This document shows, one piece after another, positions 3,713 to 19,046 of a stretch of DNA of 32,000 nucleotides. Numbering within the stretch: position 1 is the stretch's first letter; every line of letters begins with the position of its first letter. The stretch comes from Nitrospirota bacterium (lineage in GTDB: Bacteria; Nitrospirota; Thermodesulfovibrionia; Thermodesulfovibrionales; Dissulfurispiraceae): NCBI GenBank assembly GCA_040752355.1, contig JBFMHE010000023.1:1-32000 (forward strand). Reading direction: 5' to 3'. Under the pieces are notes generated by a model. That model was not told where the DNA came from and did no database searches. It was given only the letters and a program-made list of their open reading frames with translations. The position numbers were made by a program, and so were the translations under genes.

Positions 3713-3737
3713 AAAACGATGCCCGTCATAATGAACC

Positions 3738-4534: not shown

Positions 4535-4582
4535 CAAACGGGAGCTTGTTTCGGAGTTCGGATTCCGGATCTGATACGGACT

Positions 4583-5281: not shown

Positions 5282-5294
5282 CGCACTTCCCGGC

Positions 5295-5422: not shown

Positions 5423-5434
5423 CAAGGAGGTCTC

Positions 5435-5710: not shown

Positions 5711-5990
5711 GCGTGCTCCATCCTTATTGATAGTCTCCTGAATTTCTTGTAGGCTTAGGTCAGATGCGGTGATCCTTGAGTGGTGAAAGTTTGCCCCCGT
5801 TGTGGCAAGGGCTATTCGGGACACCTCCCCTATTCTCATGGAGACAGGCCGAATAAACGAATTCGAAAGCCCGGAAAGTATCCGTGGGCCATTCTCTCTC
5901 CATGAGCTCACCGCACTATCTCTCCAGAAAAACATGTCCTTGCATGTGCTATGAATTTTATGTACGTAATAGTATTGCATGAGGTGCCCT

Positions 5991-6452
5991 ATGCCACGAG
6001 TGAAAGTTGATGAGGATATCAGGCCGATGTCGGAGGTCAGGACAGGAATCGCCTCTTTTCTCAAGAAGGTCCATGGGACCAAAAGGCCTCTGGTTATCAC
6101 GCAGCACGGCAAAGGTGTCGTTGTCTTGCTCGATGTGCGGGAGTACGAGGCCATGCAGGAGAAGATAGAGCTCCTGCAGGACATACAGACTTCGATCAGC
6201 CAGTTGGAAGGGGGAGCGGCCGCCTGGCGCCGGAGATCAATCATCACCATTTCAGAGAGTTGTTTTACGGCAATTACCGATTATTTACCGGATCGAGAAG
6301 AGGCAGGTTTCTATCCTCACGATCAGGCATGGCAAGCAGATAGTACCCGTAGATTAAGTCTCGAAATAACATTGCACGCGGGGTGCGCCCTGCTCCCTGT
6401 GAGCGTATGCTCCACAACACGAAGAGCCAGAGGGCCGATAAAGATTGTATAA
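5991..6452 (+). CDS. Phd/YefM-type antitoxin N-terminal domain with an aberrant read-through C-terminal tail
   Basis: Residues MSEVRTGIASFLKKVHGTKRPLVITQHGKGVVVLLDVREYEAMQEKIELLQDIQTSISQLEGG match the Phd/YefM fold pattern. A GAGGTG SD precedes the ATG at 5991. After about 80 aa the ORF continues about 75 aa through what is toxin sequence in other frames. Confidence 0.6.
   Translation: MPRVKVDEDIRPMSEVRTGIASFLKKVHGTKRPLVITQHGKGVVVLLDVREYEAMQEKIELLQDIQTSISQLEGGAAAWRRRSIITISESCFTAITDYLPDREEAGFYPHDQAWQADSTRRLSLEITLHAGCALLPVSVCSTTRRARGPIKIV
6251..6357 (+). pseudogene. ParE/RelE-family toxin remnant (C-terminal ~35 codons only, apparently frameshifted)
   Basis: My own translation gives FRELFYGNYRLF in the frame of nt 6251 and IYRIEKRQVSILTIRHGKQIVPVD* in the frame of nt 6283 (stop at 6355-6357). 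Joined across the T-run at 6284-6286, this reads GNYRLFYRIEKRQVSILTIRHGKQ, the typical ParE/RelE C-terminus. No toxin N-terminus is present. Confidence 0.55.
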
Positions 6453-6484
6453 TGAAGTAACCATTAGAACGAAAGGGGGCTCCT

Positions 6485-6991
6485 GTGGGCGCTTCGTACA
6501 ACTATATAAACGATTTTCTGTACTTTGTGATAGAGCCCGATGAAAGCCGGGGGAAGGGGGCGTATATCTACTGCTCCGGGGCCGATATGTTCCGTTTCCT
6601 TCCCCTCACCAAGGGGCGGCACGGGCTGGCATCGAATTCGACTCTCCGGGGGCTCCAGCTGGTCAATCTCGGGATCAGGGACATGGCGCGCGAGAGGGGA
6701 GTGACGATAACGCCGCTCAAGGGAAATTGCGCGGAGTTCGCTCCCGGGGCGGGCGGATGGTATTCGGAGCGGCTGCTGATCGAGAACGCGCCGGATTCGT
6801 TTCCCGAGGAGATCCTTGCTTATGGCGTCATCAACCTCCTGAAGAAGATCGGCAAGGCCTGCATGCTCGACGACCCGATGCCCGATACGCTGCTCGAGCC
6901 GAAAGAGCTGCAGGCATTCATCGAGTCCCTGTGCGACAAATATCAAGGGAAGCATGACCTGAGATTCGTAGGAAAGAAGACCGCTCCTTGA
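6485..6991 (+). CDS. Hypothetical protein, no recognisable domain
   Basis: 168-aa ORF with a GTG start 5 nt after AAGGGGG. Composition is protein-like, whereas the antisense ORF 6464-6955 is Arg/Pro-rich. I recognised no motif. Confidence 0.5.
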   Translation: MGASYNYINDFLYFVIEPDESRGKGAYIYCSGADMFRFLPLTKGRHGLASNSTLRGLQLVNLGIRDMARERGVTITPLKGNCAEFAPGAGGWYSERLLIENAPDSFPEEILAYGVINLLKKIGKACMLDDPMPDTLLEPKELQAFIESLCDKYQGKHDLRFVGKKTAP

Positions 6992-7042: not shown

Positions 7043-8059
7043 TTAGGGAATAATCGCGTATTTTATTCCCTGGCCCTTCGACAGCTTCTCGAGCGCTGCA
7101 GGAAGCCCCTCCAGGGGATAGCTGCCGCTGATGAGCGGCGCAACACGGATCGTCCCTCCGGTCAGCAACTCATACGCTTTCTTCACATCCCGCGGGGTGA
7201 AGTGAAAGACCCCTTTCAGCGTCAACTCGTCGTAGTGCAGCCGGTAGGTGTCGTAGGTTGCTACCGTGCCCTGTTTCACGCCGCCGAAGAGGACGACCGT
7301 GCCCCCGCGGCGTACGTAATCGACGGAGGACTCCCAGACATCGATCTGGCCGGTGCACTCGAACACCGTATCGACGCCGAGGCCGTTGGTGTACTCCGGG
7401 ATAAAACTCTTGAGCCCGGAGGGGAGGATGGCGGCGTCGGCGCGCAGCTGCTTTGCGAGGTCGAGCCGCTCCTGTTCGAGGCCGGTGATGACGACCGTCG
7501 CCCCCTTCTGCTTCAGCAGGAGCAGGTGCAGGAGGCCGATCGGGCCGGTGCCGATGACCAGCACGGTGTCGCCTCTTCTGATCTCGACTCCCTGCATGCC
7601 GTGGACCACGCAGGAGAGCGGTTCGAGGAATGCCGCCTCCTCGAAGCTGAGGTGAGGCGGCTTGTGGAAGAGATTCTGTTGTGCGATGTGAGAGGGGAGG
7701 AGTATATACTCGGCGAAGGCGCCCATGACCTTCGAGGTCATGATATTTTCGCAGAGATTGAAGAGCTCCTTCCGGCAGTACCGGCAGGCGAGACAGGGCG
7801 CGCTATGGACCGCCATGATCTCGTCGCCGGACTTGAATTCCGTTACGCCCTCGCCTGTCTTTGCGACGACTCCTGAAAACTCGTGCCCGCAGACACCGGG
7901 CATGGGGATCATCGGGTGGCCTCTCAGATAGGCCTTCAGATCGGTGCCGCAGGTGAGGGCGGCCCTGACCTTGATGAGAACCTCTTCCTTCCCCGGCTCG
8001 GGGACAGGGACCTCCCGCAGTTCGAGAGAGCCCGGCTTTACCAGATAGCTTGCGCGCAT
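7043..8059 (-). CDS. Zn-dependent alcohol dehydrogenase, MDR family (threonine/sorbitol dehydrogenase-like)
   Basis: GHEFSGVV catalytic-Zn motif, structural-Zn cysteines CLACRYCRKELFNLC and Rossmann VIGTGPIGLL. Start taken at MRASYLVKPG (ATG at 8059), not the upstream extension of the ORF track. Confidence 0.88.
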   Translation of the reverse strand: MRASYLVKPGSLELREVPVPEPGKEEVLIKVRAALTCGTDLKAYLRGHPMIPMPGVCGHEFSGVVAKTGEGVTEFKSGDEIMAVHSAPCLACRYCRKELFNLCENIMTSKVMGAFAEYILLPSHIAQQNLFHKPPHLSFEEAAFLEPLSCVVHGMQGVEIRRGDTVLVIGTGPIGLLHLLLLKQKGATVVITGLEQERLDLAKQLRADAAILPSGLKSFIPEYTNGLGVDTVFECTGQIDVWESSVDYVRRGGTVVLFGGVKQGTVATYDTYRLHYDELTLKGVFHFTPRDVKKAYELLTGGTIRVAPLISGSYPLEGLPAALEKLSKGQGIKYAIIP

Positions 8060-8137
8060 ATAGCTGAAGTATAGTGGAATTCCCTGCGACAGTGCAATGT
8101 GCTCCGCCCCTTTTACACCGCTCTCCGAATTTTTTTC

Positions 8138-8167
8138 TTGACACCGAAAGGTAAGAACCTTTAGAAT
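8138..8167 (+). promoter_or_regulatory. Sigma70-like promoter: TTGACA, 18-nt spacer, TAGAAT
   Basis: TTGACA at 8138-8143 and TAGAAT at 8162-8167, 32 nt upstream of the cytochrome c start codon. Confidence 0.6.
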
Positions 8168-8181
8168 GAGACACAGTCTCA
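8167..8181. promoter_or_regulatory. Palindromic operator candidate TGAGACACAGTCTCA (TGAGA-N5-TCTCA), copy 1
   Basis: 15-bp inverted repeat that shares its first T with the -10 hexamer. The same TGAGA-N5-TCTCA pattern is present at 8713-8727 and 17041-17055. Confidence 0.6.
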
Positions 8182-8198
8182 AAAATAAGGAGGATTCG

Positions 8199-8657
8199 AT
8201 GAGCAAAACGTTTCTCGCCGTAATGAGCAGTCTCTTCTTCTTTTCACTGGTCTCTGCCGCATGGTCCGAAGAGGTGACCTACCGGAAACATATCAAGCCG
8301 GTCGTCGATGCCAAGTGCGCCGGCTGCCACGGCAAGGAGGCCGCTCCCGAATACTACGCCTTCAAGGAAGAGAAGGACAAGTGGCTCGCCAAGGGGCAGG
8401 GGATGCGGATGGACACCTACAGCCACCTGATTTTTTACACCGCCTGGCCCGACACCGGTGCCCTCATGCGCAGGCTTGATGACGGGAAAGGCTCCAAGGA
8501 AGGCAAGCAAGGCAACATGTACCAGTATCTCGGCGCAACCGAGGAAGAGCGGCAGCAGAACCTGAAGCTCTTCAAGGAGTGGGTCGGCAACTGGACATTG
8601 AAGCGGTGGAAGGATATCACCAAAGAGGATATGAACGGGATCAAAGTAACGTACTGA
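8199..8657 (+). CDS. Secreted monoheme c-type cytochrome (PSCyt1-like haem motif)
   Basis: Signal peptide MSKTFLAVMSSLFFFSLVSAAWS and a single CxxCH within HIKPVVDAKCAGCHG, which resembles the planctomycete cytochrome C (PSCyt1) motif. AAGGAGG lies 6 nt upstream of the ATG at 8199. The track start at 8166 lies inside the operator. Confidence 0.8.
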   Translation: MSKTFLAVMSSLFFFSLVSAAWSEEVTYRKHIKPVVDAKCAGCHGKEAAPEYYAFKEEKDKWLAKGQGMRMDTYSHLIFYTAWPDTGALMRRLDDGKGSKEGKQGNMYQYLGATEEERQQNLKLFKEWVGNWTLKRWKDITKEDMNGIKVTY

Positions 8658-8668
8658 TCTTCCGGGGA

Positions 8669-8702
8669 GAGGGGCGGGGCACTGTCTCGTCCCTCTTTTT
8701 TT
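8669..8702 (+). terminator. Rho-independent terminator after the cytochrome c gene
   Basis: GAGGGGCGGG (8669-8678) pairs with CTCGTCCCTC (8686-8695) as 10 bp including 2 G-U pairs. The loop is 7 nt, followed by seven T (8696-8702). Confidence 0.7.
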
Positions 8703-8712
8703 GGCCTACTGA

Positions 8713-8727
8713 TGAGAAGCAGTCTCA
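8713..8727. promoter_or_regulatory. Palindromic operator candidate TGAGAAGCAGTCTCA (TGAGA-N5-TCTCA), copy 2
   Basis: Lies 19 nt upstream of the first DUF2325-like gene's ATG, immediately after the terminator. No strong -35/-10 was seen here. Confidence 0.5.
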
Positions 8728-8746
8728 ATAGCAAAAGGAGGGTGGC

Positions 8747-9043
8747 ATGTGTATCGCGCTGATCGGCGGCATGGACAGGCTTGAGCGGCATTACAGAAGC
8801 GAGGCAGAGAGCTTCGGCGTAGACCTTAAAGTGTTTACCACATCCGAGAACGATATCACTGCCAAGGTCAGGCATATGGATGCATTGGTGATTTTTACCA
8901 ATAAAGTCTCACACAGGGTAAAAAGAGAGGTGATGAGTGTCGCGCGAGCAAAGAGTATCCCCGTTTTCCTGTATCACTCATGCGGGGTCTGCACCCTGCG
9001 TGACTGCCTCGCTTGTCTGAAAAATCCGAAGCAGGAGGTGTGA
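8747..9043 (+). CDS. DUF2325-like small cytoplasmic protein with a C-terminal CxxC-x4-CxxC
   Basis: MCIALIGGMDRLERHY...DALVIFTNKVSHRVKREV...IPVFLYHS matches my recollection of the DUF2325 pattern. The C-terminus reads SCGVCTLRDCLACL. An AAGGAGGG SD is present. Confidence 0.65.
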   Translation: MCIALIGGMDRLERHYRSEAESFGVDLKVFTTSENDITAKVRHMDALVIFTNKVSHRVKREVMSVARAKSIPVFLYHSCGVCTLRDCLACLKNPKQEV

Positions 9044-9045
9044 TC

Positions 9046-9327
9046 ATGTCTGCGATTGTTTTAAGCGGCGTGGAGAAGCTTGTAACCATGTCCCCGGTAC
9101 TCGAGAAGATCGGCATCAAAAACATCCATTTTTTCAACGCGCGCAATAACGATGAGCTGAGCACTCCACTCGTTGCGCTGGTCCCGTTCGTGGATGCGGT
9201 GGTGTTGGGAGAGGACGCTCATTTCTCGCCTCATATACACAGGCTTATTGATGAGGCGCTTGCACGGCATATCCCGGTCGTCGCGGAGAGTTGCATTAAT
9301 GAAATTGAATACCTTTTCAAGAATTGA
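9046..9327 (+). CDS. Divergent DUF2325-like paralogue lacking the Cys cluster
   Basis: Starts 2 nt after the previous stop, with an AGGAGGTG SD. AIVLSGVEKL...VDAVVLGEDAHFSPHIHRLIDEA...IPVVAES aligns positionally with the upstream protein. Confidence 0.5.
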   Translation: MSAIVLSGVEKLVTMSPVLEKIGIKNIHFFNARNNDELSTPLVALVPFVDAVVLGEDAHFSPHIHRLIDEALARHIPVVAESCINEIEYLFKN

Positions 9328-9403
9328 AACATGGAATGATCGTGTAGCGAGGAGGACAAGGAATTGTTTCAATTCTATTCAGATAGCAATAGGAGGAAAG
9401 GGA

Positions 9404-10177
9404 ATGCTTAAGAAGGGATTATTAATCGCTGCGCTGCTGCTCATTATGAGTAACGTCGCGACGGCTAAGGATATCTTAATTACCAATGATACAGGCACGC
9501 AAGGAAAAGGCCATCTGCTTGTTGAGGTTAACAGCGAGTTTTCTTTTGACGAGGAAAGCGCTGATGGCGTTACCACAAAAGAGTCGGGGATAGAGTTCGA
9601 GTCGATATTTTCTTATGGGCTTGCGGAGAACATAGATTTCATTGTTGCGTTGCCCTATGCCTGGAACAAGGTCAAGGAGGACGGGGTCACCATACAGAAA
9701 GAAGAGGGCATTTCCGATGTAGGGCTGGAGCTAAAGTGGAGATTTTATGAAAAAGACGGACTGAGCTTTGCCCTGAAGCCGGGTATTTCGCTCCCCACCG
9801 GTGATGATGAAAAGGGACTCGGAGCCGGAAGAGCAGCATATGGCATCTTCTTCATTACGACGAAAGAGGTCCAGCCCCTCTTATTTCATCTGAATCTTGC
9901 CTACACGAGAAACGAGAACAAGGTCGACGAGAGAAAAGATATCTGGTACGCCTCCCTTTCGGGAGAGGTGGAGCTCATTAAAAAGCTCACGTTCATCGGC
10001 AACGTGGGAGTGCAGACGAATACCGATCCCGCGTCGGGCAGTCCGCCTGCCTTCATTCTCGGCGGCTTTAACTATGAGGTCACCGATGCTTTTTCGGTTA
10101 ATGCCGGCATCAAGGGAGGCCTCACCAGGGCCGAAACCGATTACGCCGTCCTTACCGGTCTAGCGTGGCGGTTCTAA
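9404..10177 (+). CDS. Outer-membrane beta-barrel protein (transporter / MetA-pathway phenol-degradation-like family)
   Basis: Signal peptide MLKKGLLIAALLLIMSNVATA, alternating beta-strand pattern, an LPTGDDEKGLGAG motif and the terminal ...GLAWRF (C-terminal Phe typical of outer-membrane proteins). An AGGAGGAAAG SD is present. Confidence 0.75.
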   Translation: MLKKGLLIAALLLIMSNVATAKDILITNDTGTQGKGHLLVEVNSEFSFDEESADGVTTKESGIEFESIFSYGLAENIDFIVALPYAWNKVKEDGVTIQKEEGISDVGLELKWRFYEKDGLSFALKPGISLPTGDDEKGLGAGRAAYGIFFITTKEVQPLLFHLNLAYTRNENKVDERKDIWYASLSGEVELIKKLTFIGNVGVQTNTDPASGSPPAFILGGFNYEVTDAFSVNAGIKGGLTRAETDYAVLTGLAWRF

Positions 10178-10194
10178 AAAAAGGAGGAGCGGAT

Positions 10195-10476
10195 ATGATG
10201 CCTCTCGGTCTTTTGAGCGCCGGGGAGACGGCGGAGGTGGTGGAAGTGCGCGGTCAGCACCAGGCGGGCCAGTGCTGTGCTGCGGAGAGCAAGTCCGGGT
10301 CGTGCAGCCAGACCTGCAGGATAGAGGATATGGGGCTCCGTGCCGGCAAGGTCATCGAGATGCTGAGCAACGGCGGACAAGGAGCCTTGCTGGTAAAGGT
10401 CGACGAGACCCGGCTGGCCATCGGCCGCGGCATGGCGATGAAAGTAATGGTAAGAAGATTAGCGTTCAGCAGTTAG
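10195..10476 (+). CDS. feoA: FeoA-domain protein with a Cys-rich insertion
   Basis: FeoA core MPLGLLSAGETAEVVEV...IEDMGLRAGKVIEMLSNGGQGALLVKVDETRLAIGRGMAMKVMV is interrupted by GQHQAGQCCAAESKSGSCSQTC. An AAGGAGGAG SD is present. The stop codon lies inside repeat copy 2. Confidence 0.8.
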   Translation: MMPLGLLSAGETAEVVEVRGQHQAGQCCAAESKSGSCSQTCRIEDMGLRAGKVIEMLSNGGQGALLVKVDETRLAIGRGMAMKVMVRRLAFSS

Positions 10477-10545
10477 CTTTCAGCAGTCGGCAAAATCATC
10501 TTGTAAAATGGCTGCTATCCGAGAGCTGAGAGCCGATGACTGCAA
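10457..10545. repeat. Heptamer-array palindromic element, copy 2: 5x NNT[CT][AG]GC, a 19-nt spacer, then 5 inverted heptamers
   Basis: Left arm: gaTTAGC gtTCAGC agTTAGC ttTCAGC agTCGGC (10457-10491). Right arm: GCTGCta TCCGAga GCTGAga GCCGAtg ACTGCaa (10511-10545). Same family as 5295-5422, in the opposite orientation. Confidence 0.75.
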
Positions 10546-10557
10546 AGGGAGGGTATT

Positions 10558-10785
10558 ATGAATCTGGCGAAGTTGAAGCCCGGAGAGAGAGGGCGCATTA
10601 CGCATATCGGCGTCACCGGCCCGTTGAAGAGGAGGCTCATGGACATGGGCGTGCTCGTCGGCGAGGAGGTCAGGGTCGAGAAGGTCGCTCCGCTGGGAGA
10701 TCCCATCGAGGTGACTATTAAAAATTATAACCTCTCGCTCAGGAAGAAAGAGGCTGAGGGAATTGCGGTGGAGGTGGCAGGATGA
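10558..10785 (+). CDS. feoA: FeoA (canonical, 75 aa)
   Basis: LAKLKPGERGRITHIGVTGPLKRRLMDMGVLVGEEVRVEKVAPLGDPIEVTIKNYNLSLRKKEAEGIAV is a standard FeoA SH3-like sequence. Its stop overlaps the feoB start (ATGA). Confidence 0.92.
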   Translation: MNLAKLKPGERGRITHIGVTGPLKRRLMDMGVLVGEEVRVEKVAPLGDPIEVTIKNYNLSLRKKEAEGIAVEVAG

Positions 10786-13013
10786 GCACAGCCGTTCGCA
10801 GCAAGGAGACAGGGACCGGGAGCGAAAGACCGCGGCTTAAAGCTCAAAGCCAAAAGACCATTACCGTTGCGGTCGCCGGCAACCCGAACTCCGGCAAATC
10901 GACGCTCATCAATGCCATCGCCGGCACGCGGCTCCATGTGGGCAACTGGCCGGGCGTGACCGTCGAGAAGAAAGAGGCGCTGTTCGACTATGAGGGCACG
11001 AAGATCAAACTGGTCGACCTCCCCGGCACCTACAGCCTCAGCCCCTACACGCAGGAGGAGATCATCGCCCGCGATTATCTCGTGCATGAGACGCCCGATG
11101 CGATCATCAACGTGGTCGATGCGACGAACCTCGAGAGGAATCTCTACCTGACGGTCCAGCTCCTGGAGCTCGGCATTCCCGTTGTCCTCGCCCTCAATAT
11201 TTACGACGAGGCCGAGCAGAAAGGGTATACGATCGATGTGCGGGCGATGGAAGCACTGCTGGGCGTTGCCGTCATCCCCACGGTGGCGACGAAGAAGAGG
11301 GGTCTGAGCGATGTGATGAGGACCGCGATCGAGAGCGCTGAAAAGCCGCAGCAGCACCGGCCGAAGCGCCTCAACTACGGCGATGACATAGAGGCTGCGG
11401 CCAGGGGAGTGGAAGAGCAGATGAACCGCATCCATCCCGCTCTCATCGAGCGGTATCCCGCACGCTGGCTTGCGCTGAAGCTGATGGAAGGGGACAGCCA
11501 TGTTCGCAAAGAGATCAATACCGGCAGCAGCGGCTTCATCGGCGAGGCGGTGAGGCATCTCAAGGAGGCCCACGGCGATGATATCGAGTCCCTTATGGCG
11601 GACATGCGGTACGCACAGGCAGCAGGCCTGACCCGCGAGGTCATGAAGAGGCCCGACATACGGAAGATGGAGCTTACCGAGAAGATCGACAGGGTAGTCC
11701 TCAACAGGTTCCTCGGCATCCCCCTCTTCCTCGCTGCCATGTGGCTGGTATTCAAGCTTACCTTTGACGTATCGACCCCCTTCGTCGACTGGATCGACGC
11801 CATGACCGCAGGGCCGTTCAAGCGATGGGCAGAGGCGCTCCTGGGCGCATTGAACGCCCCTGCATGGACGGCATCACTGGCAACGGACGGCATTATTGCC
11901 GGAGTGGGGTTTGTCCTTGTCTTCGTGCCGGTCATCTTCGCCATGATGTTTTTCATTACGTTTCTTGAGGGCAGCGGCTACATGGCGCGGGCTGCCTTTG
12001 TCATGGACCGGGCGATGCACGCCATCGGGCTGCACGGCAAGTCGTTCATCCCGATGCTGCTCGGTTTCGGCTGCAACGTGCCTGCCATCTATGCAACGAG
12101 GACCCTCGAGAATCCGCGGGACAAGGCGCTCACCGCACTGCTCATCCCCCTCATGTCCTGCGGCGCGCGCCTTCCGGTATATGTGCTCTTTGTCGGCGTG
12201 TTCTTCTCGGCCAATGCGGGAACGGTGCTCTGGTCGCTGTACGTACTGGGCATTGTACTTGCCGTGGTTATGGGAAGTATCTTCAAAAGGACGCTCTTCA
12301 AAGGGGAGTCGCCGATGTTCATCATGGAGCTCCCGCCGTACCGTATGCCCTCCTTCAGGAGCCTCATGATCCACACCTGGGAAAAGGGAAAGCATTTTCT
12401 GATAAAGGCCGGCACGTATATCCTCGCGGTCTCGATCTTCGTATGGTTTCTCCTCAATCTGCCGTGGGGCGTGGAGCACAAGAAAGACTCCTACCTCGGC
12501 AAGGCCGGACAGGTGATCGCTCCTGCGCTGAGCCCTCTCGGGTTCGGCAATTGGGAGGCGGCGTCCTCATTGATCACCGGGATCATCGCAAAAGAGATCG
12601 TGGTCGGCACCATGGGAGAGATCTACGCTGTCACAAGTGGGGATGAAGAGAGGACGGAAATCCCTACGCTGACGGATGACCTCAAGGAGATCGGGACCTC
12701 TTTTGCGGGGGCGGTCAGGGACTCGGCGGCCAACGTGATCTCGACCTTCGGCATAGCGAGCATATCCGCGGAGGAGGATGAAGAGCAGAGGCCGCTGCGA
12801 TCGGTTGTTCAAGGCGCGTTCAGTCCGCTCTCCGCCTATGCGTTCATGACGTTTGTGCTTCTTTATATGCCCTGCGTCATTGTCGCCATAGCCATGCGGC
12901 AGGAGTTCGGCACCTGGAAGTGGTTCGGCATCGCCTTTGCGTACCAGACAGTGCTGGCGTGGGGTGCCGCGTTTGTGATCTACCAGGGCGGAAGGCTGTT
13001 GGGGCTCGAGTAA
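10782..13013 (+). CDS. feoB: Ferrous iron transporter FeoB (743 aa)
   Basis: N-terminal G-domain with GNPNSGKST, DLPGTYSL and NIYD, followed by a polytopic membrane domain with the gate-motif region. Confidence 0.95.
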   Translation: MSTAVRSKETGTGSERPRLKAQSQKTITVAVAGNPNSGKSTLINAIAGTRLHVGNWPGVTVEKKEALFDYEGTKIKLVDLPGTYSLSPYTQEEIIARDYLVHETPDAIINVVDATNLERNLYLTVQLLELGIPVVLALNIYDEAEQKGYTIDVRAMEALLGVAVIPTVATKKRGLSDVMRTAIESAEKPQQHRPKRLNYGDDIEAAARGVEEQMNRIHPALIERYPARWLALKLMEGDSHVRKEINTGSSGFIGEAVRHLKEAHGDDIESLMADMRYAQAAGLTREVMKRPDIRKMELTEKIDRVVLNRFLGIPLFLAAMWLVFKLTFDVSTPFVDWIDAMTAGPFKRWAEALLGALNAPAWTASLATDGIIAGVGFVLVFVPVIFAMMFFITFLEGSGYMARAAFVMDRAMHAIGLHGKSFIPMLLGFGCNVPAIYATRTLENPRDKALTALLIPLMSCGARLPVYVLFVGVFFSANAGTVLWSLYVLGIVLAVVMGSIFKRTLFKGESPMFIMELPPYRMPSFRSLMIHTWEKGKHFLIKAGTYILAVSIFVWFLLNLPWGVEHKKDSYLGKAGQVIAPALSPLGFGNWEAASSLITGIIAKEIVVGTMGEIYAVTSGDEERTEIPTLTDDLKEIGTSFAGAVRDSAANVISTFGIASISAEEDEEQRPLRSVVQGAFSPLSAYAFMTFVLLYMPCVIVAIAMRQEFGTWKWFGIAFAYQTVLAWGAAFVIYQGGRLLGLE

Positions 13014-13032
13014 TCAGAATGAGGAGGGCATC

Positions 13033-13197
13033 ATGAACCTTACCGATGCGGTATGGATGGCGGTGATCCTGGCAGGCGCGGTATATCTCCTCTACCGCTC
13101 GGTCTGGAAAAAGAAGGGGCACTGCCAGGGATGCGATTCAGGGATATGCAATAAGAAAAGAGGAGAGGAGCAGCCGCGCTCATCTCAGGAGCTTTAA
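13033..13197 (+). CDS. FeoB-associated Cys-rich small membrane protein (54 aa, absent from the ORF track)
   Basis: My own translation is MNLTDAVWMAVILAGAVYLLYRSVWKKKGHCQGCDSGICNKKRGEEQPRSSQEL*. It has one TM helix plus CxxCxxxxC, and a GAGGAGGG SD lies 5 nt upstream. Position and pattern fit the FeoB-associated Cys-rich family. Confidence 0.7.
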   Translation: MNLTDAVWMAVILAGAVYLLYRSVWKKKGHCQGCDSGICNKKRGEEQPRSSQEL

Positions 13198-13521
13198 CTC
13201 TCCCGTCAACTCGTCGAGGGATGCTGCTTCGGCAGGTCCGAGTCCCAAGCAGGTGATGGTTCCTGCAGGCACGACCGTCCTGCCTGCATCGGCAATCAGG
13301 GAGGCAGGGATGCCGCGCTGCCTGGCCGCCTCATCGAGGCGTTTGAGCTCTTCATCGCTCTCGGCCCTCAGGACGACCTTGGGCATCCCGCTCGCGAGCC
13401 ACGCCCGCCGGGCGTCTTCGTCTGCGCTGAGAAAAGCGGCGACAGCGGCATGAGCTGCCTGGGCCGCCAGTTTGCCCCGGGGCAGCTTGAGTGATTCGTT
13501 GACGACGATAACCTGTTTCAT
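13180..13521 (-). CDS. Peptidyl-tRNA hydrolase, PTH2 (archaeal/eukaryotic-type) family
   Basis: MKQVIVVNESLKLPRGKLAAQAAHAAVAAF...PKVVLRAESDEEL...IADAGRTVVPAGTITCLGLGP matches the PTH2 pattern. Its 3' end overlaps the convergent small ORF by 18 nt. Confidence 0.8.
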   Translation of the reverse strand: MKQVIVVNESLKLPRGKLAAQAAHAAVAAFLSADEDARRAWLASGMPKVVLRAESDEELKRLDEAARQRGIPASLIADAGRTVVPAGTITCLGLGPAEAASLDELTGELKLLR

Positions 13522-13638
13522 TGCTGCGGAATATAGCATAGCCGGGACACAAAAGCAATTTCAGGGGTCCCGCGGCCCTCGTCTTCAGCAGGGTATCGGG
13601 AGAGAGAGGAATTCACCGCGCGGCGGGCTCAGGACCGG

Positions 13639-14055
13639 TTACGCTCTCCTGATCACCATGAGCCTCATCGCCAGGGTACGGCTGATAGCCAGCCGGGCGC
13701 CATCCACCTTTACCACCAGAGCCCCTTTGCCGTCGTTGCTCAGCATCTCGACGATCGTGCCGGCACGGAGGCCCAATCCCTCCATCCTGCAGACAAGACT
13801 GTCCGGTTCCGGTGCACTGCTGCCACTCGTGCACGGCTTGAGCACTGCTCCGCCGGGCAGCTGCCGTATCTCTGCCCGCGCTCCCGGCTGTAAAAGGCCG
13901 AGGGGCATGCCTCCAGCCTGCTCTCCTGCCGGAAGGGCGCCATCGTCCCCTTTGAGGCCCGGATAGCCGACCGCGGGGTCGCCTGATCCTCTCTTTATGC
14001 CGGCATCGAGGCCGAAAGAGTCAATTATGGTGGGATTTTCTGCTGCTTTTCTCAT
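13639..14055 (-). CDS. feoA: FeoA-domain protein with a Cys-containing insertion and a possible Gly-rich N-terminal extension
   Basis: MPLGLLQPGARAEIRQL..KPCTSGSSAPEPDSLVCRMEGLGLRAGTIVEMLSNDGKGALVVKVDGARLAISRTLAMRLMV is a paralogue of the 10195-10476 product. The alternative start at 13908 has a poorly spaced SD, while the ATG at 14055 has GAGG 5 nt upstream. Confidence 0.75.
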   Translation of the reverse strand: MRKAAENPTIIDSFGLDAGIKRGSGDPAVGYPGLKGDDGALPAGEQAGGMPLGLLQPGARAEIRQLPGGAVLKPCTSGSSAPEPDSLVCRMEGLGLRAGTIVEMLSNDGKGALVVKVDGARLAISRTLAMRLMVIRRA

Positions 14056-14187
14056 TGCACCCTCTCTTCAAACGTCCGTACCGGGGGATGACCCCTCACC
14101 GATAGCGGCTGTCATGTTCAGGCAGTTTCCTTCTCGAACGATTCATGCATGCCGCGACACTGCGCGATGCGCCTGGACGAGATGATA

Positions 14188-14469
14188 CTACGCTGGAGGT
14201 GCCTTATTGTTGGAAGGGGATTTTGATACGGATAAAAAGGAAGACGTGTACGGCTGAAAGACGATGGTCCTTATTTCATGGCAGTTGAGGAGGATAGTGC
14301 TGTCCGCTGCTATGGCGCTGGCGAGGTGGGACGACACTTTGCAGAGAGGGCAATTCCTCTGAACTGTTCTGCCCTCATGGTTGTCGAAAGAGACGGCGGC
14401 AGCAGTGAGGAGCAGAAGTATCGCACAGAGGAGGGAGAGCTGTCTCGAGAACCGTTCGGGTAATAACAT
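14188..14469 (-). CDS. Small signal-anchored protein with a CPLC motif (hypothetical, vaguely DUF2946-like)
   Basis: The 93-aa ORF reads MLLPERFSRQLSLLCAILLLLTAAAVSF...NCPLCKVSSHLASAI. A consensus promoter ends 5 nt before its ATG. Confidence 0.45.
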   Translation of the reverse strand: MLLPERFSRQLSLLCAILLLLTAAAVSFDNHEGRTVQRNCPLCKVSSHLASAIAADSTILLNCHEIRTIVFQPYTSSFLSVSKSPSNNKAPPA

Positions 14470-14474
14470 ACTGT

Positions 14475-14503
14475 ATTCTAAGAGGCAGGTTGCTGTTTGT
14501 CAA
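14475..14503 (-). promoter_or_regulatory. Consensus sigma70-like promoter: TTGACA, 17-nt spacer, TAGAAT (minus strand)
   Basis: The reverse complement of 14498-14503 is TTGACA and that of 14475-14480 is TAGAAT. The ATG at 14469 follows after 5 nt, which implies a leaderless or near-leaderless transcript. Confidence 0.6.
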
Positions 14504-14540
14504 TGGCAGGAGAGCTGGCGCTTCCTGCTACCAGCAATTA

Positions 14541-15005
14541 TTAATGCGATTTAATGTTGTGATGCGAAGCGGTCTTGCCCGTGTCGCCGCCGCAGGTGCT
14601 GCAGTACCCGAAGATTTCGAGGCTATGCCTCACCTTCTTGAACTTCTCCTTCTGGCAGAGCTCGTCCTGCAGCATCTCGAGGGTAGGGGAAAAGAACTCG
14701 ATGACCTTGCCGCACTTGATGCAGATCATATGGTCGTGATGGGCCTCCTCCGACACGCGCTCGTAGTGCGCATGCTTGTCGATCCGCTCGACCTCCTCGA
14801 TGAAGCCGCACTCGATGAGGAGGGGGATTGTCCGGTACACCGAGGCGCGGGACACCTTCGAGCCTTTCGTCTTGAGCCTGACGAAGAGCTCCTCGGGGTC
14901 GAAGTGGCCCTTGATGCTCATGATCTCGTCGATGATCTCGTCACGCCCCTTGGTGGCTTTGAGCCCCTTGGTGCAGAGGAACTCTCTGAACTTCTCCTTT
15001 GGCAT
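14541..15005 (-). CDS. fur: Fur-family transcriptional regulator
   Basis: Winged-helix segment SRASVYRTIPLLIECGFI, metal-site HHDHMICIKCGKVIEF and a second CxxC (CSTCGG). A GGGGGAGGTG SD is present, and the gene lies 17 nt downstream of feoB. Confidence 0.9.
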   Translation of the reverse strand: MPKEKFREFLCTKGLKATKGRDEIIDEIMSIKGHFDPEELFVRLKTKGSKVSRASVYRTIPLLIECGFIEEVERIDKHAHYERVSEEAHHDHMICIKCGKVIEFFSPTLEMLQDELCQKEKFKKVRHSLEIFGYCSTCGGDTGKTASHHNIKSH

Positions 15006-15022
15006 GCAATCACCTCCCCCGG

Positions 15023-17002
15023 CTATAGTGCGACATTGAAATAACGCAGCAACCAGTTCAGTGCCCCGCCGAAGAGAAAGGCGAGGGGAAAAACGATGCC
15101 GATGACCCAGAGGGTCGTCTTCAAGCCCCGCTCTTTGATGATCATGAAGAAGCTGGCGAGGCAGGGAATGAACAGCGTTATGGTGACGAGACTCACCAGC
15201 GCCTGTATCGGCGTGAGCAGACCGTCCTCGAAGAGCTTGAAGAGTCCTGCCGCACCGTAATCCCTCCGCAGGAAGCCGAGGATGAAGGACTCCGTCGTCT
15301 TCTCGGGAAGGCCGAGGAGCGTAACGACGACGGGCGAGGCGATCTCCTGGAGCATCGCGATGAGATTCAGCTTATGGAGCAGGAAGAGGATGAGGGTGCC
15401 GAGGATGAAGAGCGGCACCGCCTCTTTCAGATACCACTCGATCCTGCCGAGGGTCTTTACGAGGATGTTGCCGATATTGGGCATACGGATCGGCGGTATC
15501 TCGAGGAAGAACTCGGTCCTCTCCCCGGGAACGAGCTTCGAGGCGAGGAAGCCCGAGATGAAGAGGATGACGATGATGCTGCTCATCCAGATGACGGCCG
15601 CTTTGAGCGAGAGCGCCCCCAATATGCCGAGGATGACTCCCAGCTGCGCCGAGCAGGGGATCGCGAGCGCGAGGAGAAAGGTCGTGATGATCCGGTCCCT
15701 CCTGGTCTCGAGGATACGCGAGGTCATGACCGCCATGGTGCCGCAGCCGAGGCCCAGGATCATCGGCAGCACCGCCTTGCCGTTGAGCCCCATGACATTG
15801 AAGACCCGGTTGCTCATGATGGCGAGCCGCGGGAGATAGCCGCTGTCCTCGAGGAGAGAGAAGGCGATGAAGAAGGTCGCAGTAATGGGCAGGATAATCG
15901 CGATCGCATAGGTGAGGGCGACCGTAATCAGCCCGTACTCTCCGACGAGCAGCTCCTGAACAATACCGATGGGAATCAGAAGCTGCACCACCTTGGTCGC
16001 CATCGGATTGATGTAGCCGTTGAAGAGCGTCTCCTCGAAGAAATCGACGAGCGTGCCGGCCCCGAAGACGCCGACGAACTGGTAGATGCCGTAGAGCACG
16101 CCGAGCAGGAGCGGAATGCCGTAGAGCGGATGCATGCTGATCCTGCCGATGAGGGCGAGGAGCTTGCCTCCCTCCGGCCCCGCTTTTCTGACGACGCTCC
16201 CGACGATCGCTTCCGCTGCCTCGATGCGGGCCTTGTTTATCACGTAGCCTGCCGGCTCTTTCATCGCGAGCTTGCATTCGTCGCGGAGCGCTTCTATTTC
16301 GAGGAGGGCGGCCTCTTTGAGATTGCTTTTCAGCCAGTCCCGCAGGCTCTCGTCTTCGGAAAGGACCATCACCGCAAGGGACCGCTGCGAGACGGCAGCG
16401 GAGGGGAGCAGCCGCCCGATCTTTTCGATATAGTCCTCGATGACCGGGTGATAGGTGATCCGGACCGTCGGCCTCCCGGGCGAGAGCATGGATTCCCGCA
16501 GCTCCTTGATCCCTTTACGCTGCGGGGCGATGGTGCTCACCACATTGATGCCGAGCATCTGCTTAAGCCGCTCGGTATCGATGGTAATGCCCTTGTCCAT
16601 CGCCTCATCGACCATGTTCAGGTCGAGGACGATCGGAATGCCCATCTCGGCGAGCTGGAGGGTTATCATGAGGGTCCTCTTGAGATTTTTTGCGTCCCCT
16701 ACCTGCACCACGGCCGAGGGGGCCTCGGTCAGGAGGATATCCCGCGTCACCTTCTCGTCCTCGCTCATGGGGATGAGGCTGTTGACGCCGGGGGTATCGA
16801 CGAGGACGAGACGTTTACCGTCGAGGGCGATATTGCCCTGGGTGATCTCGACGGTCGTCCCCGGGTAATTGGACACGGTCACGTACTTGCCGGTGAGGAG
16901 GCCGAAAATAACGCTCTTGCCCACGTTGGGATTGCCGATGAGCGCAATTTTCTCGAGCTCGCCGTGCTGCTTCTTCGCCTTTACCGCTGCTGCCTCTGCT
17001 TT
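15023..17002 (-). CDS. feoB: Ferrous iron transporter FeoB, second copy (~660 aa)
   Basis: G-domain with GNPNVGKSV, DTPGVNSL and NMVD, plus a polytopic membrane domain. I prefer the TTG at 17002, which has AGGAGG 4 nt upstream. The maximal ORF reaches 17056, but that TTG would sit at or upstream of the predicted transcription start. Confidence 0.9.
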   Translation of the reverse strand, partial: KAEAAAVKAKKQHGELEKIALIGNPNVGKSVIFGLLTGKYVTVSNYPGTTVEITQGNIALDGKRLVLVDTPGVNSLIPMSEDEKVTRDILLTEAPSAVVQVGDAKNLKRTLMITLQLAEMGIPIVLDLNMVDEAMDKGITIDTERLKQMLGINVVSTIAPQRKGIKELRESMLSPGRPTVRITYHPVIEDYIEKIGRLLPSAAVSQRSLAVMVLSEDESLRDWLKSNLKEAALLEIEALRDECKLAMKEPAGYVINKARIEAAEAIVGSVVRKAGPEGGKLLALIGRISMHPLYGIPLLLGVLYGIYQFVGVFGAGTLVDFFEETLFNGYINPMATKVVQLLIPIGIVQELLVGEYGLITVALTYAIAIILPITATFFIAFSLLEDSGYLPRLAIMSNRVFNVMGLNGKAVLPMILGLGCGTMAVMTSRILETRRDRIITTFLLALAIPCSAQLGVILGILGALSLKAAVIWMSSIIVILFISGFLASKLVPGERTEFFLEIPPIRMPNIGNILVKTLGRIEWYLKEAVPLFILGTLILFLLHKLNLIAMLQEIASPVVVTLLGLPEKTTESFILGFLRRDYGAAGLFKLFEDGLLTPIQALVSLVTITLFIPCLASFFMIIKERGLKTTLWVIGIVFPLAFLFGGALNWLLRYFNVAL

Positions 17003-17040
17003 CAAAACGCCTCCTGCAGGAATCCGGGAACGCAATCCAG

Positions 17041-17091
17041 TGAGAATAAATCTCAATTACAATTGTAGAAAAGGTACGATGATTTAATCAA
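17041..17091 (-). promoter_or_regulatory. Promoter (TTGATT, 18-nt spacer, TACAAT) plus operator candidate TGAGAATAAATCTCA (copy 3) upstream of feoB-fur
   Basis: On the minus strand, -35 is at 17086-17091 and -10 at 17062-17067. The palindrome at 17041-17055 starts 6 nt downstream of the -10. It has the 7-1-7 layout of Fur-family boxes. Confidence 0.6.
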
Positions 17092-17239: not shown

Positions 17240-18373
17240 ATGTCTAAACCGCAGGCGCTCATCTTCCGTCTTCTTGCCGTGCTTTTCACGATAGCCGTTC
17301 TGGCCCCTGAAACGACTGCCCAGGACCCTCCCAGGGGGCCGGCGAAGGGCCTTTCCGGCGCTGCCGGGGCCGTGACGGTGCGCATCGGCAAACATCCCGG
17401 CTTCATGCGGATTGTGCTCGAAGCGACCGAAGAGCAGGTGCAGAATGCCTCGGTGATGTTCTCCGGAGAGAGCGCCGTCAAAGTGGTCTTCCCCTCGCCC
17501 GTCGCCTTCAGAGTGGTCCAGAAAGGCGCTTCCCAGAAGACCCTGCCGCCGGGGAGCAAGATACCCCATGAGGCGGAGAAGGGAGTCAGGATCACGGCAG
17601 GGGGGACGTACTGCGTGATCGTTATCGACGGGCTCGATGATATCAGTGTCTCGAAATTCTCGGCGCCCTCGCGCCTCGTCATCGACGCCTACACGGTCCA
17701 GGCCGCCCCGCCTCCTGCGCCGAGCGCGCCCGCAGCGCCTGCAGAGCGGCCCGCAGGCGAGCGGATGGTCGAGAGCGCCGCTGGTGTGATCGAGGCGCTC
17801 GATATTCCGTATTCGTCGTTCGTTATCGATGCAGGGCATGGCGGTCTCGACAGCGGCATGCAGTTCGGCAAGGCCGCTGAAAAGGATATCGCACTCTCCT
17901 TTGCGAGAGACCTCGCCGCGGTGCTGGGCAAGAAGGCGAAGAAGGTCTCCCTTACCCGGAAAGGAGACCAGGTCATGACGATACGGGAGCGGGTCAGGAT
18001 AGCGCAGCAGAAGGCGCCCGAGCTGCTGATCAGTTTCCATGTCGCCTCCGGGAACGAGCTGGTCGTCTACACGGCGGCGAAGAGGGCGGGGGGGCAGGCT
18101 GGCGGTGTTCAGAAGAGGCTGCTGACGGCCGAAGGCGACCCGGCTGCGGCGTTCGCCCGGGCGCTCGTACAAAGCGTCAGGAGCGAGTGCAAGGTAGAGG
18201 CCCGGCATGAGCGGCTCCCGCTGCCGCTCCTCACGCATACTGCGGCGCCGGCGCTCCTGGTGGAGCTCCCCAGCCCCGAGCGGTTCAGCTACGACGGGAA
18301 AAACAAGGCGAGGCTTATCAAGGCGATCCTCCACGGCATCGCAGCGGTCCCGATGAACCAGAGCCAGGGGTAG
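17240..18373 (+). CDS. N-acetylmuramoyl-L-alanine amidase (Amidase_3) with an N-terminal AMIN domain
   Basis: Signal peptide, an AMIN-like segment (VTVRIGKHPGFMRIVLE...SRLVIDAY), a Pro/Ala linker, then VIDAGHGGLDSG, AEKDIAL, LISFHVAS and LLVELPS, the amidase_3 landmarks. Confidence 0.85.
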   Translation: MSKPQALIFRLLAVLFTIAVLAPETTAQDPPRGPAKGLSGAAGAVTVRIGKHPGFMRIVLEATEEQVQNASVMFSGESAVKVVFPSPVAFRVVQKGASQKTLPPGSKIPHEAEKGVRITAGGTYCVIVIDGLDDISVSKFSAPSRLVIDAYTVQAAPPPAPSAPAAPAERPAGERMVESAAGVIEALDIPYSSFVIDAGHGGLDSGMQFGKAAEKDIALSFARDLAAVLGKKAKKVSLTRKGDQVMTIRERVRIAQQKAPELLISFHVASGNELVVYTAAKRAGGQAGGVQKRLLTAEGDPAAAFARALVQSVRSECKVEARHERLPLPLLTHTAAPALLVELPSPERFSYDGKNKARLIKAILHGIAAVPMNQSQG

Positions 18374-18404
18374 GGGGACAAGAGGTCGCTCGCGACGGCC
18401 GCTT

Positions 18405-19046
18405 ATGGAGAACAAGAAATACATAGTCATCGCCGTAGTGCTCCTGATCGTTGCAGGCGCTGCCGGGTGGCTTGCCACGCAGTACTACTTCTCGCCCGGC
18501 AGTGCAGGCCCCCTGTCGGTCCTGACGCAGGGCGAAGGGCTGTCCAGGCCGCACGGGAGCGCTGCCGCCGGTCCTGAAGCCGGGGGAGAGGCCGGACTGC
18601 ACGCGGACACCGATGCCGTCCCGGTCAAGATATTCACCCCCTCGGCGGGGAGTGTCGCCGTGGAAGAGGTGCAGGTCCCGAACAACCCGGTACCGGTGAA
18701 GATGGCCGAGACCGTTCTTGCGGAGTATTTCAAGCGGCTGAAGAACGGCCCCCGGGACATCAAGGTGCTCGGCGTCTACCGCGACAGGAGAAATACGCTC
18801 TACGTCGACCTCTCCGATGATTTCCGGAGAAAATTCTCGGGGGATGCACGGGAAGAGTATACCCTGCTCGGCTCCCTCTTCGATACGATCGTCACCAACG
18901 TCATCGGAGTCGAAGATGTCCGGCTGCTGATAGAGGGAAAAGAGGTCGAGAGCGCCGGAGGACATTTCAGCATCCTTTCTCCGCTGAAAGAACTAGTGAA
19001 AGAGGAGCATAACGAGGATACCCCGCAGCACCCGGCGAGCTCGTGA
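18405..19046 (+). CDS. GerMN domain-containing membrane-anchored protein
   Basis: N-terminal TM helix followed by a GerMN-like region (VLGVYRDRRNTLYVDLSDDF...VEDVRLLIEGKEVESAGGHFSI). Confidence 0.75.
   Translation: MENKKYIVIAVVLLIVAGAAGWLATQYYFSPGSAGPLSVLTQGEGLSRPHGSAAAGPEAGGEAGLHADTDAVPVKIFTPSAGSVAVEEVQVPNNPVPVKMAETVLAEYFKRLKNGPRDIKVLGVYRDRRNTLYVDLSDDFRRKFSGDAREEYTLLGSLFDTIVTNVIGVEDVRLLIEGKEVESAGGHFSILSPLKELVKEEHNEDTPQHPASS

Follow-up and report, generated by a model that had tools for sequence, protein, structure and literature searches.

A two-system Feo island of a Nitrospirota bacterium with three Fur-type operators and a PccH-containing arm shared with Geobacter

Feo is the most widespread bacterial importer of ferrous iron, Fe(II), and is described as a purely inner-membrane and cytoplasmic system composed of FeoA, FeoB and FeoC. 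Canonical Feo is repressed by Fur. In two other importers, EfeUOB and FtrABCD, a periplasmic redox protein is integral to the inner-membrane Fe(II) importer, and Fe(II) is oxidized during uptake. The closest described counterpart of the system reported here is a gene cluster of Geobacter sulfurreducens, in which GSU3274 encodes a cytochrome c (PccH), GSU3268 is feoB-2, and two feoA genes are located 5' of feoB-2. We analyzed a 32,000-nucleotide stretch of DNA from a Nitrospirota bacterium (the window, meaning this whole stretch), in which an earlier reading of the sequence alone (the sequence-only reading) had noticed two convergent arms of genes, each with its own feoB. The region is an island of two Feo systems in which a Fur-type operator occurs three times (Table 1). 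Judged by protein identity and gene order, its plus arm is orthologous to GSU3274-GSU3268 of G. sulfurreducens.

PccH of Geobacter is the product of GSU3274, for which a crystal structure (PDB 4RLR) and a knockout phenotype have been published. The literature describes it in a single context, as a periplasmic cytochrome of unusually low potential (about -24 to -35 mV) that is induced in current-consuming biofilms and is required for electron uptake from a cathode, with GSU2515 as its published redox partner in the context of electron uptake. The PccH passages of a September 2026 cytochrome review treat the protein purely as an electron-uptake carrier, and Feo is not mentioned in those passages.

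The cytochrome encoded by the first gene of the window's plus arm had been labelled "PSCyt1-type" in the sequence-only reading, and this label has to be replaced by PccH. A Pfam search revealed a match to PF22297 with 196.4 bits (cut-off 24.4) that covers profile positions 1-133 of 133, and a phmmer search with the window protein matched residues 2-129 of 129 of the 4RLR chain with an E value of 4e-70. The haem motif is CAGCH, and C41, C44, H45 and M108 (in GNMY) were invariant in 23 aligned sequences; from the residue numbering, M108 would be the distal haem ligand. A signal-like segment, MSKTFLAVMSSLFFFSLVSAAWS, can be read directly at the N-terminus. The protein is thus a predicted periplasmic haem protein and a close orthologue of G. 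sulfurreducens GSU3274. The family is large and its conservation is unusual: a database homologue search found 2044 clusters below 1e-5, the best 120 of which were 66-81% identical to the window protein although they came from several phyla, with the organism's own entry at 100%.

The locus L081 (survey loci are cited by L numbers) comes from a close relative of G. sulfurreducens, with about three residue differences between its PccH and the 4RLR chain. Its genes are arranged in the order PccH, DUF3793, DUF2325, OprB-family porin, FeoA, FeoA, FeoB and FeoB_associated, which agrees with the published GSU numbering. Between the window and L081, the identity was 66% for PccH, 64% for DUF2325, 56% for the FeoA with a loop insertion, 87% for the second FeoA, 74% for FeoB and 61% for FeoB_associated. 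The window and the GSU3274-GSU3268 cluster therefore share PccH, DUF2325, an outer-membrane barrel, a Cys-loop FeoA, FeoA, FeoB and FeoB_associated in the same order, and in both a Fur-box-like palindrome follows just after a TTGACA promoter; in L081, TTGACA and a -10 hexamer are followed by TGAAAAACATTTTCA, as at the window pccH. There are also differences. In the Geobacter-type locus, DUF3793 takes the place of the Cys-less DUF2325-like gene, and the counterpart of the PF13557 barrel is an OprB-family porin. The half-sites of the operators also differ (TGAAAA in Geobacter, TGAGA(A/C) in the window), and the window cluster converges on the second Feo system. The identities to Thermodesulfovibrio sp. 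N1 (a Nitrospirota isolate, L022) were 60% for FeoB and 66% for FeoA, below the values obtained with L081. Because the plus arm is closer to the Geobacter type than to this member of the Nitrospirota, the comparison suggests that the whole plus-arm module moved horizontally between phyla.

The operators that the sequence-only reading had assigned in common to the accessory genes and feo are real. The palindrome TGAGA-N5-TCTCA has exactly three matches in the 32 kb, starting at 8167, 8713 and 17041, against 0.03 expected, and none of 100 shuffled sequences reached three. All three copies belong to this locus and lie at promoters or at the start of operons. In structure, they are Fur-box-type inverted repeats (7-1-7) that carry G in place of the T of the classical box. 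When two mismatches were allowed, the palindrome was not enriched (10 matches versus 8.65 expected), so the operator claim rests on the exact form. Canonical Fur-box variants hold the position of operator 1 upstream of pccH orthologues. Among 79 species-level loci, we searched the 150 bp upstream of pccH with the pattern TGAnAAT-n-ATTnTCA, requiring at least 10 of the 12 positions, and found a Fur-box-like site in 35. The site density is 3.1 per kb there and 0.066 per kb in the remaining sequence of these loci, a control that is unmatched for intergenic composition. The matches include perfect TGATAATGATTATCA boxes. L081 also has a second, weaker Fur-box-like site ahead of its porin gene, analogous to operator 2 of the window. 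In a preprint that cites Embree et al. 2014, gsu3274 is listed with feoAB among the direct Fur targets.

The minus arm contains a Fur-family gene, whose product matched PF01475 with 111.6 bits (cut-off 23.1). Its best NCBIfam matches were Fur models, all below their cut-offs (97.9 versus 200), which leaves the subtype (Fur, PerR or Zur) unsettled. Most likely, this Fur or a paralogue represses all three operator-bearing units when Fe(II) is plentiful. In related loci, pccH or DUF2325 is often immediately preceded by a same-strand gene for a second type of Fur-family protein (L008, L010, L011, L019, L023, L032 and L046; also L091, L093, L094, L104, L113, L114 and L129). In the L008-L046 set, its products were 33-41% identical to the window Fur. 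This second type may be a dedicated Fur paralogue for the pccH/Feo module.

To place the locus among its relatives, one genome per species was scanned for PccH. Relatives turned up in 287 species, and 80 of the loci were examined. They belong to Nitrospirota/Thermodesulfovibrionales, Geobacter/Desulfuromonadales, Syntrophaceae, Syntrophorhabdus, Planctomycetota, Chloroflexota, Rokubacteria and other lineages. Feo genes were present within 7 kb of PccH in 29 of the 80 loci and in 13 of the 32 that had at least 5 kb on both sides; in 17 of these 32, Feo, DUF2325, a barrel or Fur was found. Adjacency of PccH to feo, at about 36-41% of PccH genes, is frequent and not obligate. Loci L001, L010, L013, L017, L023 and L059 have the complete order PccH-DUF2325-barrel-FeoA(loop)-FeoA-FeoB-FeoB_associated. 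It is also seen in L004, where the contig ends inside feoB, and the gene order is permuted in L022, L043, L057, L070 and L080. In three Geobacter loci (L026, L028 and L064) and in L059 of the Nitrospirota, PccH directly follows fur-feoB-1-DtxR/FeoA, and L059 has its two Feo systems on a single strand. The side-by-side placement of two Feo systems is therefore itself recurrent. PccH can therefore be attached to either Feo type, and in these four loci it is flanked by two different iron repressor families, one of them as a DtxR/IdeR-FeoA fusion.

A second survey covered 80 metagenome loci encoding proteins 57-73% identical to the window DUF2325. Its neighbours included Feo in 44 loci (15 of the 23 with 2.5 kb flanks), a barrel in 34, PccH in 23 and Fur in 22, and at least one of these partners was present in 63. 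PccH, DUF2325 and the outer-membrane barrel are thus recurrent partners of the plus-arm Feo type across phyla. The synteny check proposed together with the sequence-only reading was positive for all three, in Nitrospirota, Desulfuromonadales/Geobacter, Syntrophia-like and other lineages.

The barrel next to PccH belongs to different families in different loci. It is an OprB porin in the G. sulfurreducens type (L081), gives a weak, sub-threshold Porin_4-like match in several Desulfuromonadales loci and a weak, sub-threshold BBP2/OmpL-like match in L005, is represented by DUF3187 and Pom barrels in L053, and is a divergent PF13557 protein in L014. Because unrelated families fill this slot, selection would appear to favour the presence of some outer-membrane channel beside PccH and not a particular family.

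Two further neighbours were noted in the surveys. DUF3793 (PF12672) was present between or beside PccH and DUF2325 in 15 related loci, mostly from Geobacter/Desulfuromonadales (including L027, L057, L077 and, at 6259-6933, L081). It occupies the slot of the window's Cys-less DUF2325-like open reading frame (ORF) and is another uncharacterized family tied to the pccH/Feo module. In two Planctomycetota loci (L040 at 10458-12236 and L045 at 3326-4996), the same-strand gene after PccH is not a Feo gene and encodes a FeeM-like N-acyl amino acid synthase/GNAT protein of 556-592 amino acids (aa).

Table 1. Features of the two-system Feo island, in window coordinates.
Feature	Position	Strand	Evidence or remark
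Sigma-70-like promoter of pccH	8138-8167	+	TTGACA-18-TAGAAT, 11/12 matches
Fur-type 7-1-7 operator 1, TGAGACACAGTCTCA	8167-8181		Abuts -10 hexamer of pccH promoter
pccH, secreted monohaem c-type cytochrome, 152 aa	8199-8657	+	PF22297, E 2e-58
Terminator-like hairpin and T-run after pccH	8676-8702	+	
Fur-type operator 2, TGAGAAGCAGTCTCA	8713-8727		Between post-pccH hairpin and DUF2325 ribosome-binding site
DUF2325 protein, 98 aa, cytoplasmic	8747-9043	+	PF10087, E 1e-25; C-terminal CxxC-x4-CxxC
Cysteine-poor ORF, 93 aa, tentative DUF2325 paralogue	9046-9327	+	No Pfam/NCBIfam match
Outer-membrane beta-barrel	9404-10177	+	PF13557 (Phenol_MetA_deg), E 1e-19
FeoA paralogue with Cys-rich loop insertion QCCAAESKSGSCSQTC	10195-10476	+	PF04023, E 6e-14
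Canonical FeoA, 75 aa	10558-10785	+	PF04023, E 1e-23
FeoB, FeoB-2 type, 743 aa	10782-13013	+	FeoB_N, FeoB_Cyto, Gate x2, FeoB_C
FeoB_associated Cys-rich membrane peptide, 54 aa	13033-13197	+	PF12669, 27.6 bits (cut-off 27), borderline
PTH2 peptidyl-tRNA hydrolase	13180-13521	-	NF003314, 133.6 bits (cut-off 126)
FeoA paralogue, 138 aa, N-terminal extension and loop insert	13639-14055	-	PF04023, E 7.5e-11
Membrane-anchored His/CPxC (CPLC) peptide, 93 aa	14188-14469	-	No Pfam/NCBIfam match
Strong sigma-70-like promoter ahead of CPLC gene	14475-14503	-	TTGACA-17-TAGAAT
Fur-family regulator, 154 aa	14541-15005	-	PF01475, E 3e-32; HHDH and two CxxC motifs
FeoB, FeoB-1 type, about 660 aa from TTG at 17005	15023-17005	-	ORF extends to 17056
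Fur-type operator 3, TGAGATTTATTCTCA on the minus strand	17041-17055		Just downstream of -10 hexamer of feoB-1 promoter
Sigma-70-like promoter of feoB-1/fur unit	17062-17091	-	TTGATT-18-TACAAT

The ORF listing and the profile hidden Markov model (HMM) scans confirmed the layout described by the sequence-only reading. All thirteen ORFs were present at or near the coordinates given there, with families backed by the scans, and the two arms converge tail to tail, overlapping by 18 bp (13180-13197) between the FeoB_associated and PTH2 genes. For the first four genes of the plus arm, the same boundaries were found in independent gene calls on a public contig of the same organism (a metagenome-assembled genome, MAG, named "Nitrospirota bacterium"). 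The intergenic gaps of the plus arm range from -4 to 89 bp, which fits an operon. The two plus-arm feoA genes are located immediately 5' of feoB with a 4-bp overlap, and the sole feoA of the minus arm is about 1 kb downstream of feoB-1, behind fur and a separate promoter. The hairpin after pccH may act as an attenuator ahead of the remaining plus-arm genes. Scans of the whole 32-kb window found no Rfam families or tRNAs.

The genes on either side are unrelated to iron. They encode a PhdYeFM-type antitoxin (at about 5991-6356, coordinates transferred from L090 with an inferred offset), a Zn-dependent alcohol dehydrogenase (7043-8206, minus strand) divergent from pccH, and, past the feoB-1 promoter, an Amidase_3 and GerM-domain (Germane) pair (17240-19046). 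Within the plus arm, the GC content dips to 0.48 at 9001-10000, compared with about 0.55-0.63 on either side. This stretch spans the Cys-less DUF2325-like ORF and the PF13557 barrel gene, which are both lineage-variable positions. Considering the low GC content and this variability, the two genes may be a later insertion or replacement.

Of the two genes that had been called DUF2325-like in the sequence-only reading, the first is a clear member of the family, matching PF10087 with 90.2 bits (cut-off 33.6), and the second is a Cys-less, weakly supported relative. In an alignment of 38 sequences of the first protein and its homologues, C79, C82, C87, C90, H56 and H77 were invariant and C2 was nearly so. 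An AlphaFold2 model (predicted local distance difference test score, pLDDT, 89) showed a minimal four-stranded Rossmann or flavodoxin-like fold, and a Foldseek search using this model revealed generic Rossmann/flavodoxin-like folds only, with no functional relative. For the second protein, an hhalign comparison with DUF2325 gave a full-length but weak match (probability 59%, E 9e-5) in which the invariant cysteines are missing, pairwise BLASTP gave E 0.05, and no Pfam match was found at E <= 0.1. A word-indexed homologue search found only four proteins. In related loci, this ORF is always directly 3' of DUF2325. Among the papers on DUF2325, none was found to concern Feo, as judged by their titles.

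The barrel matched PF13557 with 71.6 bits (cut-off 22), and its signal peptide (MLKKGLLIAALLLIMSNVATA...) and aromatic C-terminal end (...LAWRF) can be read directly; no solved relative was found by sequence search. The first FeoA carries, after its second strand, a variable Cys/His-rich insert of about 10-35 residues, a feature that it shares with its Geobacter homologue and with most of 20 related loci. Pfam scans found the full domain set above cut-offs in both window FeoB proteins, and the FeoB_associated peptide is kept directly after feoB in related loci. Apart from PTH2, no accessory ORF belonged, in the HMM scans, to a family with an established unrelated role.

Several candidate matches and fusions were rejected. 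NCBIfam models supplied no names for the accessory ORFs, and the sole match of PccH, to hydrazine synthase alpha, covers only a 27-residue haem motif. Among the profile matches of DUF2325 to RecA chains, the strongest (E 1e-7 to 7e-5) have no domain-level stretch that passes the threshold, and otherwise there is only a marginal one (E 0.035). In L037, L049 and L058, what looked like fused or tandem copies of PccH some 1350 bp upstream are Arg/Pro-rich spurious frames in high-GC DNA. In a 215-aa protein, P0090, which matches both PF22297 and PF10087, the DUF2325 part lacks its N-terminus, and we do not regard it as a true fusion; it is probably an assembly or frameshift join. P0090 independently shows a PccH gene and a DUF2325 gene next to each other.

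The minus arm represents a different Feo type. Its FeoB has the domains FeoB_N, FeoB_Cyto, Gate x2 and FeoB_C, and is 42-55% identical to the fur-adjacent FeoB of Geobacter and Nitrospirota loci. The two FeoB proteins of the window are only 29% identical to each other, which indicates old paralogues and no recent duplication. A divergent FeoB beside a Fur-family gene is also found in the fur/feoB-1 pair of Geobacter (GSU1379/GSU1380). In loci related to that pair, a DtxR/IdeR-FeoA regulator and then PccH often follow (L026, L028, L059 and L064). In contrast, the window has the order feoB-1 then fur, lacks a DtxR-FeoA gene, and has the separately promoted His/CPxC peptide and the N-extended FeoA instead. 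The gene for the peptide has its own near-consensus promoter and no operator.

The CPLC peptide belongs to a small unnamed family with 11 relatives among 1.8 billion representatives. Its members have an N-terminal membrane helix, F-H-H-H, C-P-x-C and a terminal R-A-P-P-A, and H31, C40, C43 and the C-terminal PP were invariant in the family alignment. In L082, a relative with 43% identity is followed by a 127-aa FeoA homologue, at the position equivalent to the 138-aa FeoA of the window, and this arm converges on a feoB-2 arm as in the window, without PTH2. Other relatives are the first gene of ZnuA/ABC-3 metal-import operons (L086 at 268-2920 and L088 at 3536-6280). There, the CPLC relative is followed by a conserved 441-444-aa protein with no Pfam match and then by ZnuA and ABC-3, so that the two leading genes form an uncharacterized leader pair of metal ABC operons. 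In P0125 (2741 aa), 38 separate stretches match residues 32-67 of the CPLC protein (E 6e-39), which implies that the His/CPxC segment also occurs as a long tandem repeat.

The sequence-only reading had counted PTH2 as part of the system. It was present in none of about 160 related loci of the PccH and DUF2325 surveys and is absent from L082, which has the same convergent layout. PTH2 is therefore a passenger outside the Feo system.

Compared with canonical FeoAB(C) of E. coli and Vibrio cholerae, the plus arm has the same FeoB G-domain, two Gate motifs and FeoB_C, and a small SH3-like FeoA. It differs in that it lacks FeoC, has two FeoA paralogues (one of them with a Cys/His loop) and a FeoB_associated peptide, and carries additional genes dedicated to the periplasm, the outer membrane and the cytoplasm. 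These extra genes are not found in a 2022 comparative study of Feo architectures, in which the words "cytochrome" and "porin" do not occur. The likeness of PccH-FeoB to EfeUOB and FtrABCD is proposed as a functional analogy only, and the FTR1/EfeU permease, DyP peroxidase and cupredoxin of those systems are unrelated to the window families; Pfam scans of the locus ORFs found no FTR1/EfeU permease, cupredoxin or DyP peroxidase. A functional precedent for the barrel is the OmpC-Feo route reported for E. coli, in which a specific porin is the outer-membrane leg of Feo-dependent Fe(II) uptake (PMC7315122). OmpC is a general porin that is encoded elsewhere under EnvZ/OmpR control, whereas the barrel gene of the window is inside the feo operon. 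The DUF2325 protein Cj1384c of C. jejuni is small, Cys-rich, PerR-regulated and strongly induced by oxidative stress, and thus resembles the window protein, compared by description only, as a small Cys-rich DUF2325 under a Fur-family regulator (PerR). It adjoins katA and a haem-trafficking gene, not feo.

Taken together, the extended Feo module is real, conserved and probably iron-regulated, and its parts are known. With moderate confidence, we read the locus as an iron-regulated iron-acquisition island with two anciently diverged Feo systems and an envelope-spanning mechanism in its plus arm. In this mechanism, the barrel would admit iron through the outer membrane, and PccH would reduce Fe(III) or keep periplasmic iron ferrous at the mouth of FeoB. 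FeoB would then import Fe(II) under the control of the two FeoA proteins. On the cytoplasmic side, DUF2325, with its four invariant cysteines and Rossmann-like fold, would receive the iron or sense the iron or redox state. The minus arm (feoB-1/fur) would act as a second importer, which has a FeoA of its own and a His/CPxC peptide that faces the periplasm. More tentatively, and with doubts that outweigh our confidence, we propose that the PccH family is the periplasmic redox part of an envelope-spanning Feo machine with iron acquisition as its conserved job. The cathode phenotype, by which Geobacter PccH has been defined for more than ten years, would then be either secondary, through iron supply, or a lineage-specific side use. 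An envelope-spanning system had already been put forward in the sequence-only reading. The shared operators and the operon structure on which it drew have held up, the latter in the form of tight gene spacing, and the uptake mechanism itself stays a proposal.

Several points weigh against the envelope-spanning mechanism. Soluble Fe(II) is usually ample for anaerobes, so it is not obvious why a periplasmic reductant would be needed. Among the PccH genes with full flanks, over half lack a feo gene within 7 kb, and PccH can therefore work without an adjacent Feo. A search using the E. coli Fur 19-mer (GATAATGATAATCATTATC) found no match in the window at up to three mismatches. Because the operators deviate from this consensus, the protein that binds them is assigned by inference. 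No recognizable promoter was found for operator 2. The metal specificity of either FeoB is a prediction. Finally, loss of current consumption at a cathode is the sole pccH mutant phenotype published so far.

This last point leads to the main rival reading, co-regulation without co-function, which we consider unlikely, if by no means negligible. PccH would be an electron carrier, serving cathodic or extracellular electron uptake or acting as an iron-sparing monohaem substitute for multihaem periplasmic cytochromes. Fur would switch it on under iron limitation, and it would adjoin feo only as a member of the Fur regulon. The published knockout phenotype and the redox partner GSU2515 both concern electron uptake. 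Many stand-alone pccH genes have their own Fur-box-like site (L006, L012, L016, L018 and L053), and in the window a separate promoter precedes pccH and a terminator-like hairpin follows it. However, this reading does not account for the close operon linkage of PccH to DUF2325, barrels and feo across several phyla, or for the pccH genes that lie within feo operons or close them, as after feoB in L022, L057 and L080. PccH also occurs in lineages not known for electrode or mineral respiration (Thermodesulfovibrio sp. N1 and MAGs of Planctomycetota and Chloroflexota). Moreover, the GSU3274 deletion mutant oxidizes reduced anthraquinone-2,6-disulfonate (reduced AQDS, or AHQDS) normally, which implies that PccH is not a general component of electron uptake.

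A general divalent-metal import island is a still less probable explanation. Here the FeoB-1 type, perhaps with the His/CPxC peptide and its FeoA, would handle Mn(II) or another metal, like the "Meo" members of the Feo family. The low identity between the two FeoB proteins would fit this, as would the ZnuA/ABC-3 (Zn/Mn/Fe) operons headed by relatives of the CPLC peptide; in addition, the substrate of Geobacter FeoB-1 is explicitly unassigned in the literature, and Mn-specific FeoB proteins exist. Yet the feoB-1 promoter carries the same operator as pccH, and the Fur-family gene co-transcribed with feoB-1 has Fur, not Zur, Mur or PerR, as its best NCBIfam match, with all matches below their cut-offs.

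It is improbable that Fe(II) sensing, oxidation or detoxification, and not uptake, is the task of the accessory genes, with PccH taking electrons from periplasmic Fe(II) and the module protecting the cell from excess iron or oxidants. The periplasmic redox proteins EfeB/EfeO and FtrB do oxidize Fe(II), and the oxidative-stress induction of the PerR-regulated Cj1384c points in the same direction. However, an operator of the repressor type that overlaps the promoter implies that the genes are induced when iron is low, not when it is high. The cited list of Geobacter Fur targets groups gsu3274 with feoAB, and the low potential reported for PccH makes it better suited to giving electrons to Fe(III) than to taking them from Fe(II). 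Chance adjacency of unrelated non-Feo genes, although true for PTH2, is hardly credible for any other accessory gene, because the surveys found the same same-strand order again in dozens of species-level loci of several phyla and because the operators are shared.

The envelope-spanning Feo mechanism remains the reading that we favour. The locus is not categorically new: its families are known, G. sulfurreducens has the cluster, and Fur control of gsu3274 has been reported. The sequence-only reading had called the system not characterized. This holds for the function of the unit and not for its parts, given the pccH-feoB-2 cluster of G. sulfurreducens, the structure and knockout of PccH, and its place among the Fur targets. 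Neither the extended Feo module as a unit nor a role of PccH in iron acquisition was found in the comparative Feo study of 2022, in what the 2026 review says on PccH or in the DUF2325 literature.

The locus and its relatives represent a recurrent variant of Feo, with Fur-type operators, its own periplasmic cytochrome, an outer-membrane channel and a Cys-rich cytoplasmic protein, and they bear on the open question of the route and the redox state in which iron reaches FeoB. Because the same module is present in G. sulfurreducens, for which genetics, a ΔGSU3274 mutant and the PccH structure are available, the idea is directly testable. If PccH is only co-regulated, the locus would be an ordinary pair of Feo operons. 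If the idea is true, PccH, a well-studied "electron-uptake" cytochrome, would be re-assigned, a role would be found for DUF2325 and possibly for DUF3793, and the Feo model would extend across the cell envelope.

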